Shown: positions 3,565-22,223 of the stretch, piece after piece
Layout: every line of letters begins with the position of its first letter
Numbering within the stretch: position 1 is the stretch's first letter
Notes under the pieces: generated by a model
What the model saw: the letters and a program-made list of their open reading frames with translations, nothing else
Told to the model about the DNA's origin: nothing
Databases searched by the model: none
Made by a program: the position numbers and the translations under genes
Source of the DNA: a virus
Taxonomy: Duplodnaviria > Heunggongvirae > Uroviricota > Caudoviricetes
Length of the DNA: 38,866 nt
Direction: 5' to 3' (one strand)
IMG/VR virus record: IMGVR_UViG_2695420485_000017

Positions 3565-4500
3565 TCAGTAGTTATGTACTGAAGGAGGCAATTCTTTATT
3601 CTTAAGTCTCATCCATGCGGAAAGATTCGTTGGTCCGTCTGGCTCATTAATATCAACATCTCGTGTGTGGTTTATTAAAACGTCTCTCGCCATTCCGATA
3701 ACATACGAGAATTCATGACCGTAGTCGTAGCATCTGCCGGAATAGTTCGATTGAATTTGTTTTAGCGCCGGATACAGTTCGCGGAATAATGCCTGTGAGC
3801 GGTTGGCATAATCCCATAACCATACAAGGCTGTTTGCTTCTTTTGCAGAAAGCTCGTTTGCTTTCTTCTCTTGTTTGCCGATTAACTCGCCTTCAAGCGG
3901 AACGCGAGCTGCAAGTGACAGAGCTTCGGTAAACTGCTCATCGCTGATTTCTTTGTATGAACACCCAAAATGAGATTTCAGCGACGACCACATGGTAATC
4001 ATTGCCTTCGCCTGTTTTTCTTTTGGCAGAGACTGACCGCGACTCATGACGAGTTGTTTAATGGCTTCCTGCTGTTCAGTGGTGATTTTACCCGGCAACG
4101 CCTTTTTAGCTTTGCGTGGGTTAACTACATGGCCTTTAGTCCAGTAGTCATGCAGCACGCTAAAGCATTCCTCCTGGTACTGAATCAGTTTATCGCGGAT
4201 GTCAGCTCGAACTTTCTCAGGGTTGATGCTGAACAGCCATCCATTTAACTTCTTCAAAGGAAGGCAGAGTAGCTTACGAAGCTTCCCATCAGCGGCAACC
4301 ATATTCATATGAATACAGTTGAACTTATCTAGTTGTTTCATAAGTTTTTGTTGCTGAGTACCCCAACTCATTCCAAGGTTTTCAACGATTGGCTTCATCG
4401 CAACGTATGCAACTCCGGCAGCCATGGCGGTGATAATTTGCTGACCGTTGAATGGTACGTAAGAGGTGTTCACTGCTTCTAAAATTGCTATACTATTCAT
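3565..4500 (-). CDS. ant: Antirepressor Ant (P22 immI)
   Basis: Follows arc in operon with Oarc/Omnt; N-terminus [10 protein letters not shown]... starting at ATG 4500 (ORF track extends upstream via TTG). Confidence 0.8.
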
Positions 4501-4502
4501 GT

Positions 4503-4570
4503 TGGTTTTTCTCCACGGATTTACTGACAACCGAAGCCCTGACTGTTCCCGCAGTTGGGGCTTCAACTTT
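4503..4570 (+). ncRNA. sar: Candidate sar-like antisense RNA covering ant RBS/start
   Basis: Plus-strand -10 TACTAT (4491-4496) inside ant 5' end; hairpin GAAGCCC...GGGCTTC at 4532-4562; arrangement as described for P22 sar. Confidence 0.35.
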
Positions 4571-4730
4571 ACGCGCCAATGCGCCCTTCCTTCTTAAAGC
4601 TTTCCATTACTCTCTGATAAATCTCAGAGTTAACAGACCGACCATTCTCTTCCGCCACCTTGCGTACCAAATCCAATACTTCTTTAGGCCACCGCAAATT
4701 GAACTGCGGCATTTTGCTCATTCCTTTCAT
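4569..4730 (-). CDS. arc: Arc repressor
   Basis: 53-aa product [53 protein letters not shown], near-identical to recalled P22 Arc. Confidence 0.9.
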
Positions 4731-4744
4731 GTTCACCTCACAAT

Positions 4745-4765
4745 ATAGGTCCACGGTGGACCTAT
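4745..4765. promoter_or_regulatory. Mnt operator (Omnt)
   Basis: Perfect palindrome ATAGGTCCACGGTGGACCTAT matching the known P22 Mnt operator. Confidence 0.85.
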
Positions 4766-4769
4766 TGAG

Positions 4770-4798
4770 AATATAGTAGAGTGCTTCTATCATGTCAA
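4770..4798 (-). promoter_or_regulatory. Pant promoter overlapping Arc operator
   Basis: Minus strand -35 TTGACA, 17-nt spacer, -10 TATATT; Arc operator ATGATAGAAGCACTCTACTAT (4773-4793) lies in the spacer. Confidence 0.75.
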
Positions 4799-4820
4799 TA
4801 CACTAACTTGGAGTGATGGC

Positions 4821-5072
4821 ATGGCTAGAGATGATCCGCACTTTAACTTCCGTATGCCTATGGAAGTAAGGGAGAAATTAAAATTCAGGGCGGAGGCGAA
4901 TGGGAGATCAATGAACTCCGAGTTGTTACAAATCGTCCAAGATGCTCTATCAAAACCATCGCCTGTGACTGGATATCGTGACGATGCAGAACGACTCGCT
5001 GATGAGCAGTCAGATCTTGTTAAGAAGATGGTGTTTGATACGCTGAAGGATTTGTACAAAAAAACCACCTGA
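4821..5072 (+). CDS. mnt: Mnt repressor
   Basis: 83-aa product MARDDPHFNFRMPMEVREKLKFRAEANGRS... matching recalled P22 Mnt; RBS GGAG upstream. Confidence 0.9.
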   Translation: MARDDPHFNFRMPMEVREKLKFRAEANGRSMNSELLQIVQDALSKPSPVTGYRDDAERLADEQSDLVKKMVFDTLKDLYKKTT

Positions 5073-5171
5073 CGGTGAGTTAATTTTTGCATTTACCTGG
5101 GCCATATTGACTAATTATAAAATGAGATCAATATTTAATCGCCCAATAACTGGTGTATGTTGAGGTATATC

Positions 5172-5351
5172 ATGGCGAAAAAACCAGGTGAAAACACAGG
5201 AAAAAACGGCGGAATATACCAAGAAGTTGGCCCACGCGGCGGTAAGAAAGACAATTTTGCCACCGTCAAGGACAACGAAAGGCTTCCACCAACAACAAAG
5301 CCAGGTCATGGCTGGGTATTGGATAAGCGAACTCCAGACAGCAAAAAGTAA
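5172..5351 (+). CDS. Small YjzC-like protein, function unknown
   Basis: ATG with GAGGT RBS; own candidate promoter (TTGACT) upstream and terminator downstream; sequence MAKKPGENTGKNGGIYQEVG...GHGWVL. Confidence 0.6.
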   Translation: MAKKPGENTGKNGGIYQEVGPRGGKKDNFATVKDNERLPPTTKPGHGWVLDKRTPDSKK

Positions 5352-5357
5352 TAATCA

Positions 5358-5380
5358 AGCCGGGTCACTCCGGCTTTTTG
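5358..5380 (+). terminator. Hairpin terminator between convergent accessory genes
   Basis: AGCCGG-gtcact-CCGGCT followed by TTTTT; stop codon of the minus-strand HExxH gene sits in the loop. Confidence 0.5.
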
Positions 5381-5730
5381 ATATGTCGCTCGCAGAACTC
5401 AACAAGCCTGCTCATTAAGTAGCAGTAAGTCTCGTTGGCTCTTCCTGGTTCAACATCAACACCTACCCTTGAGCAGATATCGAATGCCATGTGAGCGCAC
5501 TCATGGGCAATAGTAGATAGTTTGCCATTGAACACGCCTATCACATGCAAAACACCATTCTCGCTACTCATTGTATGAGACGCTCCGTTGGCGTCCGAGT
5601 CATGCACGTCAACGCCAAGTTTTTGATGCAGGCGTTGCCATTCTGGAAAGTCTCTACAAAACACAATTGTACCGCTCTCAAAGAGCGGTACTAGCATCTT
5701 TGGTACGTTTCCAATGTTAACTTTTTTCAT
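5365..5730 (-). CDS. Hypothetical protein with HExxH motif (putative zinc metallopeptidase-like)
   Basis: 121-aa ORF with ATG start and motif IAHECAHMAF; no transmembrane segment apparent; family not assignable from sequence alone. Confidence 0.55.
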   Translation of the reverse strand: MKKVNIGNVPKMLVPLFESGTIVFCRDFPEWQRLHQKLGVDVHDSDANGASHTMSSENGVLHVIGVFNGKLSTIAHECAHMAFDICSRVGVDVEPGRANETYCYLMSRLVEFCERHIKKPE

Positions 5731-5764
5731 GGTATCCTGCGCAAAACTAAGGAGAGTTAATTAT

Positions 5765-6250
5765 ATGAAAAAATCACTGTTAATTATCCCGCTTCTGCTG
5801 GCTGGGTGCGCAAAAGTAAGCGACTATCAGGCAAGTTGCGAGCAACGCTATCCAAAGCTTAGTGATATGGCTAATTGCCTTGATGCCAGCGTGAAGAACG
5901 ACTCACGCATGGCATCAGCACCAACACCTAAGCTGTATGTCCTTGCTGCGAAGATGCTCGGGCAAGGTGTCGATCAAGGCAAGATAAGTGACGCACAGGC
6001 AAGACTTGAGCTTCAGAATCTTTATGTTCAATTACAAAGCCAAGAACAAGCCCAACAAATAGCACAAAGCCAAGCATTCCAGCAGGCTTTATTGAATTAT
6101 CAGGCTGTAAACACAATGCAAGCGATCGAGCAAAAAGCGCGCCAGCCTGTTATAACTCAACCTTACCCAACACGCGTTGACACATATACAAACTGCAATT
6201 CAGGATTTGGAAACACCGTCACATGCAACAGTAGCAGCAACATTAGATAA
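5765..6250 (+). CDS. Predicted lipoprotein (candidate superinfection-exclusion or envelope accessory protein)
   Basis: Strong RBS AAGGAGAG; signal peptide MKKSLLIIPLLLAGC with lipobox LAG-C; Gln-rich middle region. Confidence 0.65.
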   Translation: MKKSLLIIPLLLAGCAKVSDYQASCEQRYPKLSDMANCLDASVKNDSRMASAPTPKLYVLAAKMLGQGVDQGKISDAQARLELQNLYVQLQSQEQAQQIAQSQAFQQALLNYQAVNTMQAIEQKARQPVITQPYPTRVDTYTNCNSGFGNTVTCNSSSNIR

Positions 6251-6337
6251 AGCTATTCATTCATACCGCTTAACGAGGCGACAATACCAGCTCTCGACAA
6301 GCGATTGAATTCATCGCTACCAATAGCATCGCGTGTT

Positions 6338-6415
6338 GCAGACCAACAATCTGATATGGTTAAGAAAATTGTCTTTGATACGCTCAAAGAGCTATATAAA
6401 AAAGACAGCAGCTAA
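6338..6415 (+). pseudogene. Remnant of an mnt-like 3' end
   Basis: Translates ADQQSDMVKKIVFDTLKELYKKDSS-stop, clearly related to the Mnt C-terminus (ADEQSDLVKKMVFDTLKDLYKKTT); no upstream start. Confidence 0.45.
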
Positions 6416-6432: not shown

Positions 6433-8697
6433 TTACTTCTGGTTATCATCACTGTTCATCCAGTACATGATGCCTAGCCTTGATATGGTTTTCTTATCTG
6501 ATTCTGGAAGTGAGTTGTAAAACGAGCGCCAAGCAGAAGAGCGTCTTACAGTTGTATCAACGATGCTTTCTGGTGCTTGTTTTACTGCCAGCCTTGCTGC
6601 TTTCTGGAATTCTGGTGAGCTAATTAGCTTTTCTGCAGATTCCATTGATGCAGCGCCGCCCATCGCCCTGATTTTGCTGGCGACTTTTGCCCCAATTTCT
6701 GACCCAGCAACAGCACCTACTGCACTGAACGGTCCTGACACAGTTGAACCAACCGCAGTGCCAATGCGTTGGGCATGGTTAGCAACAAATTCATTTGCCG
6801 CAGTGACGCGATTAAACCGTTTGACGAACTCGTTTAGTCTTCCTGTAGTTATCTCGTAAGATTTTGCATCTTTGATAGCCTTTGCGACCTTATATACATC
6901 GTTCAGACCTGACATAGTCTCTTTTGGTAAATGTCGGGCAAGATTGCGCATCTGCCCGTTTGCTAACATGTTTTGATACCAGTCAGCAAACCCTGCAGGA
7001 TTAAAATCAGCGCCACGTTTTCCGTTCGAAAGCATATCCCGAAGACCTGTTCCCAGTAGCTCGGTTCTTAGCTTCCTGGACGGCGTGTTTTGCATCAATT
7101 CACGAAATCCTTTGGCATCGCCTTTCGACATTGCCTGTAGTGCTGTAGTTGCTTTGCGAGAAACATCACCGTTCAGCGTTCTGCCAGTTAGATTAATCAT
7201 TTGCTCTTCCATGCTTTTTCGCATCTGAACAAGCCTCTGAGCAACTTCAAAATCACGTAATGCATTTGTCTCTGACAGCGCCGCCTTTTGATCATCGGCG
7301 AGCGAACCGTAAAGCCTCGATAAAGCAGCGCGATCAGCATCTTTATATGGTCCAGAATTCTTATGAAGTGCATCACCAACAAGTCGTCGTTGCTTATTGA
7401 GATTTGCATAAGTTAATGCGCCGTTCTTGCCTGGATTAACTGCCCGAAAGACTCTCTTTTCAATAGGGTCAAGGTTTTTCATCCCGCCAAGATCTTCTGC
7501 CACCTGTTTGAGCATTGACCTTGTTGATGGCGCATCAATTTTTGCACCTGCAGGCATCGCCTTTTCAACATTGCGATAAAGCTGGTCGCTTCGTTTCATC
7601 AGCGCAGACATTCTTCCATTGATCGTATCAATAAACTTGTCGCTCATACCAAGAGCATCTTTTGCACCGGAAACGCGATCAATTATCTCCCCCGCGCCCT
7701 GTGCTAGTTGCCTGATTGCTTCATTTTCCTGCACCCGTAGAGCAGAACCCGCACGGGACTTGATTGCTTGCTCAACTGCCTTGTATTGCTCGTTCCCGGA
7801 AAAATGTGAAGGGAGTAATGAATCAACATTAAGCCTTTCAGCAGACTCCAGAACTTCAGCCTGAGGATTGATATCTAGTTCATCAAGCGATGAAGCGAGA
7901 TTTGGCCTTTTTTGTGCTGCTACTGTGCGGACGACCTCCTCTGGGTCCCTCGTCGCAGGCGTCATTGGTACACCTTGTGCTGCTCTTGCCTCTGCGGCAT
8001 GAACCGCAGGATTTGTTGCTGCAGCGGCATCACCGGAGAATGGTGATGTTTCTGTTGGCGCAGTACCGGAGAATGGTGATGTTTCTGTTGGCGCAGTGGT
8101 CGCTCTCTGTGCAGATGTTTTATTGCCACTAATTATATTTGATGCACCACGAACACCACGGGTAACGCCATTTATCAGGCCATGCGTAGCAATGTTAAGT
8201 CCGGCATTAATAGCGGCATTTTCGGCAAAATCACCCCGTTGATTCGCCGCGTCAGCGAGAGAACCAATGACCATGTTTCCAGCTACTCCTGCTCCAGGAA
8301 CAAGATAACCGCCTATTGACTCTCCAGCTTGAGCGTAGGGGTCTGTCGGTCTGTCTACTGGGCGATAAACATCATCCAAAACCTTGGGGCCACCAAGCCC
8401 CTGGCTGATTGCATTAATCAGACTTGCGCCACCCTGCAATACGTCAAATGGTATGTTTACCAGACCACGACCAGCCTGCTCTGCAATTTGCCCTGCACTT
8501 TGACCACCTGTGAGCCAATCGCCAGCTTGTTGCATCAATGATGGTTCTTCACGTGCTGGTTCATTATTGGCCTGATTAACTGTTTGTTGCTGAACAGCCT
8601 GACCAGCAAAATACTCATCAATGGCGGTGCCAATATCTTCCGTGCTCGTACCATCAGGGAAGGTAAATGTCTTACCGTTTGCAGTTACTTTCATCAT
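6433..8697 (-). CDS. Ejection/DNA-transfer protein, P22 gp16-like
   Basis: 754-aa ORF in gp7-gp20-gp16 order; start overlaps gp20 stop (GAATGATGA); Gly/Ala-rich. Confidence 0.75.
8053..8118. repeat. Tandem 33-bp in-frame duplication inside gp16-like gene
   Basis: ccggagaatggtgatgtttctgttggcgcagt(a/g) repeated twice, encoding [11 protein letters not shown] twice. Confidence 0.7.
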
Positions 8698-21755: not shown

Positions 21756-22223
21756 TCATCGAAGGCATTGCGTCCTGATGTATTCCTGAAGCGTTCTCAG
21801 TGCTGTTTGGTCGCGGATAATTCCGTCCCGGACACCGAGAACGTTTCGTCCAGCAACTGGAGAGAGTTCGACGGTGGCATCATTGCCCATGCCGGAGGCG
21901 CTGGAGGTTTCGTCTGAGGATGGCACAGGGCATTTTCCTTTGACGAGCACCCTGCCACCATTATCAAGCTTGCGCCGAAGAGCATCATTTTCAGCTTTCG
22001 CATCAGCTAACTCCTTCGTGTATTTAGCATCGAGTGCATCAGCATCGCGCTGGCGCTGCTGAATGTCAGTAATGGTGGCGGTCGCCTGCTTCAGCTCACT
22101 GACTTTTTTATCACGCTGTTCTTTGTAGGCGATGGCATTATCACGGTAATGATTAACAGCCCATGACAGGCAAACGATGATGCAGATAACCAGAGCGGAG
22201 ATAATCGCGGTTACTCTGCTCAT
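21756..22223 (-). CDS. Rz: Spanin inner-membrane subunit Rz
   Basis: 155 aa, N-terminal TM segment, lambda Rz-like; follows endolysin. Confidence 0.9.
21797..22003 (-). CDS. Rz1: Spanin outer-membrane lipoprotein Rz1 (embedded in Rz, +1 frame)
   Basis: [19 protein letters not shown] lipobox followed by Pro-rich stretch; nested in Rz as in lambda. Confidence 0.8.

Follow-up and report, generated by a model that had tools for sequence, protein, structure and literature searches.

A lipoprotein gene takes the place of sieA behind the sieA promoter of a P22-like prophage and is a candidate superinfection-exclusion factor

The viral record IMGVR_UViG_2695420485_000017 (Duplodnaviria; Heunggongvirae; Uroviricota; Caudoviricetes) is a stretch of DNA of 38,866 nucleotides, which we refer to in its entirety as the window. 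It is a P22-like prophage with its late genes on the minus strand, and at positions 5765..6250 (+ strand, stop codon included) it carries a gene for a predicted lipoprotein of 161 amino acids (147 in the mature form). We found that this open reading frame (ORF) has been swapped, ORF for ORF, for the superinfection-exclusion gene sieA, behind the sieA promoter and ribosome-binding site (RBS). The best-supported reading, which we propose with a probability of about 40%, is that the lipoprotein protects the lysogen from superinfecting P22-like phages at an outer-membrane or periplasmic step. This reading is based on the replacement of sieA behind its own promoter, the mutual exclusivity of the two genes, and the transcription of a near-identical copy. 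For the broader claim that the candidate lipoprotein serves superinfection exclusion of some kind, whether by interference with the DNA conduit or by receptor masking, we see slightly better than even odds.

Window positions 4133-5758 match the immI region of P22 with 92.7% identity over 1626 nt (ant, sar, arc, mnt, orf59a and the sequence upstream of sieA), and the 408 nt ahead of the RBS are 97.8% identical to P22. The sieA-type promoter and 5' untranslated region (5676..5754, +) shares 76 of its 79 nucleotides with the sequence upstream of P22 sieA and ends in the Shine-Dalgarno sequence AAGGAG (5749-5754, +), 10 nt ahead of the lipoprotein ATG; the sieA promoter (PsieA) annotated in P22 (BK000583) is matched at 31 of 31 nt at window positions 5700-5730. 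Homology to P22 ends at the RBS, 4 nt short of the start codon of P22 sieA: the P22 junction reads ...AAAACTAAGGAG followed by GTTGGT-GTG(sieA), and the window junction reads ...AAAACTAAGGAG followed by AGTTAATTAT-ATG(lipoprotein). Because the P22 homology stops at the RBS, the lipoprotein ORF precisely replaces the sieA ORF. This exact junction between PsieA and the lipoprotein is present in 19 genomes. The two genes also occupy equivalent positions relative to gene 16: in P22, sieA (164 aa) and gene 16 converge, their stop codons 22 nt apart, and in the window the lipoprotein gene (161 aa) and gene 16 converge with a gap of 182 nt between the stops.

In P22, the upstream stretch drives sieA in uninfected cells, and sieA placed at galK with only 85 bp of its upstream DNA gives full exclusion, its expression in that construct being probably governed by PsieA according to Leavitt et al. 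(PMC10883804). A bidirectional intrinsic terminator (5357..5376, both strands), at the place where the mnt terminator is annotated in P22, ends the mnt-orf59a transcript in the window, so the lipoprotein gene needs its own promoter, the PsieA equivalent. At the other end of the cassette, a remnant of the mnt 3' end (6347..6403, +, in an ORF at 6305-6415) lies between the stop codons of the lipoprotein gene and gene 16. It is identical to positions 5007-5063 at 44 of 57 nt (77%) and encodes ...SDMVKKIVFDTLKELYKK; the equivalent remnant in E. coli WCHEC050613 (locus L020) is annotated as a partial Arc-family pseudogene. The remnant is a recombination scar that forms the right border of the cassette.

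The gene order tailspike or immI/mnt, lipoprotein (+), gene 16 (-) recurs in at least 14 P22-like loci from at least 8 genera, with protein identity down to 50%. These loci come from E. coli (L001, L009, L020 and L028), Salmonella phage VSe13, Serratia, Morganella, Citrobacter, Tatumella (two), Providencia, an Enterobacteriaceae metagenome-assembled genome (MAG) and Proteus phage Brookers. The gap from mnt to the lipoprotein gene is 18 nt in Brookers and 70-80 nt in several other loci, and gaps this short suggest co-transcription with the lysogeny gene mnt. In tblastn searches using SieA of type A (P22) and type B (HS1) as queries, we found no match in the window or in the L001-L030 loci, a set with about 20 lipoprotein-bearing P22-like loci. 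Conversely, the lipoprotein is absent from the sieA loci of P22 and of HS1, where we identified the type B gene at NC_009800 325462-326100 by a product that bears the FNRYPGEARKFNK motif. The lipoprotein gene and sieA are mutually exclusive in all loci inspected. Among 5426 complete E. coli genomes the lipoprotein gene is present in 186 (~3.4%; chromosomal in all of them, LF82, O104:H4 and B7A included), compared to 21 genomes with an HS1-type sieA.

The copy in prophage Gally of E. coli LF82, LF82_138, encodes a protein 98.8% identical to the window lipoprotein and is transcribed in the lysogen. In LB medium at stationary phase it has 70 normalised reads against a prophage median of 15.6 (PMC9928086 S1 Table), second in Gally only to the c2 repressor with 727 reads (PMC9928086). 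On a log2 scale of fragments per kilobase per million (fpkm), its level is ~8 in culture medium, 10.3 in macrophages at 1 h and 8.6 at 6 h, and that of the adjacent injection gene LF82_137 is 3.6-4.1 in all conditions; LF82_138 and its divergent neighbour LF82_139 (L009 3447-4486) are the top Gally genes after c2, with values of up to 10.3 and 11.0 (PMC9928086). Relative to the prophage background LF82_138 is 4.5-fold higher in LB and up to ~80-fold higher in macrophages, while the late genes are silent. For the window gene, identity to PsieA makes expression in the lysogen probable. With a PsieA equivalent, an upstream terminator and a transcribed homologue in LF82 (whose upstream region differs), the gene has the features of a moron.

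The macrophage data also bear on a different explanation, in which the gene is lysogenic-conversion or fitness cargo unrelated to phages, acting, like Bor/Iss, on survival in serum or in host cells or on envelope stress. In macrophages at 1 h the LF82 copy is ~16-fold above its LB level, and the four neighbouring rightmost genes rise with it; the five rightmost Gally genes show 6- to 40-fold induction in macrophages (PMC9928086). The gene is found in pathotypes (adherent-invasive E. coli LF82, O104:H4 and enterotoxigenic E. coli B7A), there is other cargo in the same slot, and chromosomal relatives exist in environmental Proteobacteria, with relatives outside P22-like phages and one in a housekeeping neighbourhood. 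However, deletion of the whole of Gally left macrophage survival of LF82 unchanged (PMC9928086), which speaks against a macrophage-fitness role and has no bearing on exclusion, and the lipoprotein is similar neither to Bor/Iss nor to any virulence family. It would then be a coincidence that the ORF replaces sieA so precisely and that the two genes exclude each other, and we consider this explanation unlikely.

The lipoprotein ORF extends from an ATG at 5765 to a TAA at 6248-6250 on the + strand; a longer ORF from 5714 was dropped, since MKK is the start in all homologues. The protein begins MKKSLLIIPLLLAG followed by CAKVSDYQ, with predicted cleavage ahead of Cys15. Its signal peptide (residues 1-14) and the lipobox L-A-G-C span 5765..5809 (+), with the codon of the predicted lipid-modified Cys15 at 5807-5809 and Ala16 at position +2, and the layout consists of basic M1-K2-K3, a 9-residue hydrophobic core (SLLIIPLLL) and L12-A13-G14-C15. 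To find lipoboxes we applied a rule like that of PROSITE PS51257 (basic n-region, hydrophobic core, and [LVI][ASTVI][GAS]C with the Cys at position 15-35) to each start codon in the six frames of the window. This gave 10 raw matches, against ~1.65 per mononucleotide shuffle, and among the matches inspected only the lipoprotein ORF and the phage's Rz1 outer-membrane spanin (o-spanin) at 22003(-) have a genuine signal-peptide layout. The protein is a bacterial lipoprotein by sequence, with the lipobox kept in 215 homologues and Cys15 invariant (alignments A1 and A4). The +2 residue of these homologues is A in 168, T in 21, V in 13, S in 6, Q, G or M in 2 each and L in 1, and it is never D; Ala16 thus agrees with the Lol rule for Enterobacterales (no Asp at +2). 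Because there is no Asp at +2, we predict anchoring in the outer membrane: after processing by Lgt, LspA and Lnt, the lipoprotein would travel via Lol to the inner leaflet of that membrane. The earlier note that drew attention to this gene had described a lipobox with Ala at +2 and outer-membrane-type, Lol-sorted features. The lipobox is borne out by the LAGC motif at Cys15, by the PS51257-like rule and by conservation, the signal-peptide and lipobox prediction that the note had proposed as a check came out positive, and the sorting features are supported at the sequence level by the lack of Asp at +2 across the 215 homologues. For the role in superinfection exclusion that the note suggested, which stays a candidate function, the swap with sieA, the mutual exclusivity and the transcribed prophage copy add up to substantial circumstantial support.

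An outer-membrane-type lipoprotein in a phage could instead be an accessory lysis or virion lipoprotein for the lytic cycle, for example a second o-spanin, and residues 5-36 do have a weak Rz-like spanin match (E = 0.058). That match is confined to the signal peptide, however, and the phage has its own lysis cassette, with Rz1 (22003(-), 68 aa) inside Rz (21756-22223). The lipoprotein gene is outside the late operon and convergent to it, behind a prophage-active promoter, and the LF82 copy is transcribed while lysis and late genes are silent. We rejected the spanin reading, as the gene has neither the lysis-cassette position nor the late expression of an o-spanin, and any such role in the lytic cycle strikes us as extremely improbable.

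We modelled the protein with AlphaFold2 in two runs (alignments of 27 and then 65 sequences). The mature part begins with a compact helical domain (residues 16-96; 5810..6052, +), for which the predicted local distance difference test score (pLDDT, as block means) is 83-92 over residues 21-90 in the two runs. A helix of residues 76-125 leaves the compact domain, with low confidence past residue 100. Within this long predicted helix is the Gln-rich segment noticed earlier (residues 84-127; 6014..6145, +), which our count confirms at 15 Q in 44 residues (the whole lipoprotein has 21). Next come a flexible Pro-rich spacer (residues 128-139; 6146..6181, +), in a stretch predicted as disordered from residue 126 to 139 with pLDDT <50, and a C-terminal beta-hairpin (residues 140-158; 6182..6238, +) with predicted strands at 140-146 and 152-158 (pLDDT ~50), whose two cysteines, Cys144 (6194-6196) and Cys154 (6224-6226), are on opposite strands.

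Over 65 diverse sequences C25, C38, L65 and A79 are invariant, and the motifs kept in the N-domain are Q22-x2-C25-E26, paired with C38, and a helix with D-A-R-x-E-L-Q-x-x-Y. The terminal motif containing C144 and C154 is T-x-C-x3-G-x4-C-x-[ST]-[YR]. Exactly five cysteines are present in the mature protein of 178 of the 215 homologues, and 176 of the 215 have a C-x5-12-C loop near the C-terminus. A C25-C38 disulfide is probable and the mature lipoprotein would have two disulfides; four conserved cysteines besides Cys15 are as expected for an exported, oxidised protein. In the models, the long Gln-rich helix and the Pro-rich spacer would extend a disulfide-stapled hairpin into the periplasm.

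The hairpin is an exchangeable tail module. There are pairs of homologues with 88-95% identity over residues 16-126 and only 23-37% over residues 127-161 (for example Citrobacter P0007 vs P0038, and the window vs Serratia P0025), and the recombination breakpoint in the gene follows directly on the conserved motif ARQP. The tail types in circulation number at least three, including ...TNCNSGFGNTVTCNSSSNIR, ...TTNCTTYGNQTRCQSY and shorter variants. This swapping between near-identical bodies is the behaviour of a specificity module, as judged from the alignments.

Searches against known proteins gave nothing that would assign a function. Scans of the lipoprotein with Pfam, NCBIfam and PADLOC gave no match, a sequence-profile search of the PDB gave nothing at E <1, and the predicted fold had no match among solved (PDB) or viral (BFVD) structures. 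The impression in the earlier note that the sequence does not resemble the phage lipoproteins known to its author holds up: the Cor family aligns with the signal peptide only, there is no fold match, and we found no sequence or fold similarity to Llp of T5 or to other solved phage lipoproteins. One source names cluster P0023 of the family as the type II secretion system minor pseudopilin GspK, but NF037980 scores 19 bits over residues 69-121, against a cut-off of 130, and the name is a mis-annotation.

Receptor masking of the Cor/Llp type is an explanation by analogy, in which the lipoprotein would bind from the periplasmic side and disable an outer-membrane (secondary) receptor such as OmpA, OmpC or FhuA, with an effect not specific to P22. 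OmpA and OmpC serve phages of the Sf6 type as secondary receptors, and FhuA is the target of both Llp and Cor. The candidate is likewise an outer-membrane-type lipoprotein, prophage-expressed and with a predicted disulfide-containing mature part; its conserved N-domain suggests a conserved host partner, and the exchangeable C-terminal hairpin could plug different barrels. Against this, the match to the Cor family (phrog_1119) is limited to the signal peptide (residues 1-29; E = 0.078, 14.4 bits), and the protein has no kinship with any solved or viral structure. Its strict tie to the P22-like sieA slot suits a P22-directed function better. We think masking of this type improbable, and the support for receptor blocking is no stronger than that for an effect on the ejection-protein conduit.

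The lipoprotein is a full-length member of phrog_6067 (residues 1-161 on profile positions 1-161, E = 9.8e-110, 364.6 bits), a family that carries no annotation in PHROGs v4, so that membership gives no functional information. Homologues with 96-99% amino acid identity occur in the Lederbergvirus phages vB_EcoP-720R6, Gally and VSe13, and homologues with ~55% identity in Salmonella phage MS2 LVA and Proteus phage Brookers, where the protein is annotated 'putative lipoprotein'. Searching 5.8 billion proteins yielded 97 clusters (at 90% identity) of 153-162 aa, all from Enterobacterales and with no Pfam domains. The ratio of nonsynonymous to synonymous substitution rates (dN/dS) is 0.040 in comparison with 720R6/LF82 and 0.036 with VSe13, and the C-terminal tail differs from that of VSe13 at 0 nonsynonymous and 8 synonymous sites. 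The ORF is a real gene under strong purifying selection, its 'disordered' tail included. There is no GC anomaly over the gene, so composition gives no evidence for a recent foreign origin. We also saw decay in some lineages, with truncated or fused copies in E. coli HCM-25C-3 (L021 2084-2425) and Pectobacterium (L027 10001-10282); one of these derivatives goes under the name 'YobH family protein', and one, reduced to 94 residues, has no P22-like genes around it. A literature search by accession and locus tag found no paper on the lipoprotein, and a preprint on CRISPR interference in LF82 does not mention it. What was already known consists of 'hypothetical protein' entries and the PHROG; the family, fold, architecture and position as an allelic alternative to sieA are new.

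To see the family more widely, we searched 1.84 billion representatives with a profile and obtained 261 clusters, 96 of them at E <=1e-10. Their architecture is that of the lipoprotein but the linkers are shorter, and most are from environmental Proteobacteria (Sulfuritalea, Sulfuricaulis); no Pfam domains were found in the distant relatives looked at (10 scanned, plus precomputed annotations). We read nine genomic contexts. Three loci are immediately convergent with giant (>=2400-3700 aa) polyvalent proteins containing MuF_C or ddrB-ParB/PBECR1/LPD38 domains. Two copies in one Sulfuritalea MAG (L012 and L013) lie at the ends of prophages, with a small terminase and an LPD38/InPase giant nearby. 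One locus is in a podophage-like gene array, one adjoins an integrase, one is in a toxin-antitoxin island, and one is among housekeeping genes. The relatives near giants are at L015 617-1015, L017 215-598, L019 7001-7738 and L012/L013 5001-5387, and the giants range from at least 1771 to 3754 aa. Because the giant polyvalent proteins have no similarity to gp16, the association between giants and relatives is positional and not homologous. The recurring theme is that of a last gene past a module of packaged or ejected proteins, on the opposite strand.

These neighbourhoods are relevant to the explanation that the lipoprotein is a periplasmic immunity protein or inhibitor acting against an envelope-acting toxin or enzyme, such as a type VI secretion effector, a bacteriocin or an ejected peptidoglycan-degrading domain. 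The giant polyvalent proteins next to distant relatives (MuF_C, LPD38, PBECR1) are thought to be delivered into cells. In E. coli WCHEC050613, genes for a Rap1a/Tai-family immunity protein, a hypothetical protein and an XhlA-family protein lie between mnt and the lipoprotein (L020 2088-3128), and this region is a multi-cargo hotspot for envelope-directed proteins. However, the convergent orientation is unlike the toxin-then-immunity order of an operon, and one and the same lipoprotein pairs with unrelated gp16 alleles. The gp16-type ejection (DNA transfer) protein of the window (6433..8697, -, 754 aa; phrog_770, E = 3.8e-162), which is outside the cassette, is a mosaic: its first 190 residues are 75% identical to P22 gp16, its whole length is 46% identical to gp16 of a Morganella prophage, and it is essentially unalignable with gp16 of 720R6 and Gally, which carry the same lipoprotein. 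P22-like gp16 is without a transglycosylase domain (PMC8954989), and Pfam finds none in the window gp16. An immunity function appears to us quite remote.

Several other elements surround the cassette. An Rfam scan of the region found only the sar antisense RNA (4501-4568, +; RF00262, 95.6 bits, E = 1.2e-20), which lies across from the junction of arc and ant, as it does in immI of P22. The homologue of P22 orf59a (5172-5348, +; 98% over 59 aa, phrog_3202) is co-oriented with mnt ahead of the terminator, and has a weak YjzC-like Pfam match of 19 bits, under the cut-off. Divergent from the lipoprotein is a 121-aa ORF with an HExxH motif, IAHECAHMAF (5365-5730, -; phrog_1365, function unannotated), whose 5' end is overlapped by the sieA-type promoter. 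This ORF is intact in the P22 sequence with one amino acid difference, and the BK000583 feature table has no coding sequence there; it resembles the active-site region of thermolysin only weakly and without significance (E = 0.09-0.7). We rejected the divergent neighbour as a partner gene: it differs by locus, being the 121-aa HExxH ORF here, an unrelated 139-aa protein in Gally and a Bro-N protein in Serratia, with none in Morganella. In the Serratia locus (L003) the sequence upstream of the lipoprotein (~5880-5990) is also different; it contains repeated palindromes similar to TTGCAAA(A/T)TTTGCAA and elements that resemble promoters (TTGTCA...TAAAAT), and may be an operator-controlled promoter. 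That prophage is degraded, with gp16 truncated beside a DNA polymerase A gene, and the lipoprotein is intact.

We propose the following mechanism for protection of the lysogen at the outer-membrane or periplasmic step. The trans-envelope channel of P22, ~50 nm long, is formed by gp7*, gp20 and gp16 (PMC13622523); gp7 is placed at the outer membrane, gp20 in the tunnel through the periplasm and gp16 at the inner membrane (PMC8954989). SieA targets gp16/gp20 at the inner membrane (PMC10883804). The prophage would express the lipoprotein, whose lipid anchor would sit in the outer membrane with the compact helical domain against it, and the exchangeable hairpin would be the element that contacts the target in the periplasm. 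There the hairpin could interfere with penetration by the needle or by gp7/gp20, with assembly of the conduit, or with an outer-membrane secondary receptor. A tethered periplasmic hairpin could act earlier than the inner-membrane step of SieA.

A number of observations weigh against this proposal. A dN/dS of 0.04 is not typical for an arms-race protein, and the N-domain motif, kept in lineages as far apart as Sulfuritalea and E. coli, suggests that the partner is a conserved host component and not a phage protein. Only a very short tether separates Cys15 from the first helix (residue 18), and this may disfavour efficient trafficking to the outer membrane. One distant homologue is in a housekeeping neighbourhood, and the sieA slot doubles as a general cargo site (the Rap1a/Tai and XhlA-like genes of L020). 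Co-evolution of the lipoprotein with the resident ejection proteins is not visible in the loci compared: the lipoproteins of the window and 720R6 are 98% identical, but their gp16 proteins align over only 48 aa and their gp20 proteins over the N-terminal half only. A link between tail type and gp7 type over six loci was considered and is broken by Tatumella L023. With regard to expression, the upstream sequence common to the LF82 copy and the window amounts to only ~17 nt, and the LF82 authors called Gally moron-free (PMC9928086). Gally received that label because LF82_138 is 4.5-fold over the median in LB and the authors' cut-off was 5-fold (78), so its published 'moron-free' status hinges on the threshold.

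We extend the proposal, as a rather doubtful possibility, to phrog_6067 and its relatives as an unrecognised class of modular exclusion lipoproteins, in which the outer-membrane-anchored helical body would dock on a conserved envelope component and the swappable hairpin, on its long stalk, would jam the ejection machinery of incoming podophages with a gp7/gp20-type conduit (and, in other phage lineages, the delivery of giant packaged polyvalent proteins). If this is true, the class would be the main functional alternative to SieA in E. coli, by 186 genomes to 21. P22 and its relatives are a model for how a short-tailed phage builds a DNA conduit across the Gram-negative envelope, and to our knowledge SieA is the only exclusion protein directed against the podophage conduit, acting at the inner membrane. 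A second, unrelated protein in the regulatory slot of sieA, at the other membrane, would open the outer-membrane and periplasmic stages (needle, gp7, gp20), about which least is understood, to genetic study by means of escape mutants, and the exchangeable hairpin is a natural specificity experiment. If the lipoprotein does exclude phages, it matters for predicting the host range of therapeutic P22-like and other O-antigen-specific phages.

Among known systems, Cor (of phi80, N15 and HK022) and Llp (of T5) are also small phage lipoproteins with outer-membrane sorting features, and they give superinfection protection within the envelope by inactivating FhuA. Llp activity depends on a disulfide. 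The likeness to the window lipoprotein is one of analogy only: there is no homology, the window lipoprotein is about twice as long and has a helical domain, a long linker and a terminal hairpin, and it is found in O-antigen-specific podophages and not in FhuA-dependent siphophages. Bor/Iss of lambda-type phages, which confers serum resistance, is similarly an outer-membrane lipoprotein expressed in lysogens as a prophage moron, but it has no sequence similarity to the window lipoprotein and a different genome position.

SieA (P22; types A-C, PMC10883804) is the closest in genomic terms. The two share the slot between gene 16 and mnt/tailspike, the convergent orientation, a similar length (161 vs 164 aa) and, in the window, the promoter, 5' untranslated region and RBS, and SieA is expressed from the prophage. 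They differ as proteins. SieA has no BLASTP match to the lipoprotein and is a polytopic inner-membrane protein with three or four transmembrane (TM) helices and a cytoplasmic FxRYPxEAxxFNK motif, whereas the lipoprotein has a cleavable lipoprotein signal and no TM helix and is predicted to be outer-membrane-anchored and periplasmic. Hydrophobic 19-residue windows scoring >=1.6 number 0 in the lipoprotein and 43 in SieA. The lipoprotein thus shares genomic position and a prophage-active promoter with the SieA family but not its homology, TM helices or motif. A counterpart in the proposed mode of action is Ltp of Streptococcus phage TP-J34, a lipoprotein that binds the tape measure protein and so prevents the injection of DNA (PMC10883804, PMC3952083). 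Ltp works in a Gram-positive host without an outer membrane, has a fold of helix-turn-helix repeats and an unrelated sequence, and targets a siphophage tape measure protein. It is nevertheless prophage-expressed, and its tethered, modular extracytoplasmic part acts against DNA delivery and not against adsorption, which is the same as the mechanism that we propose here.

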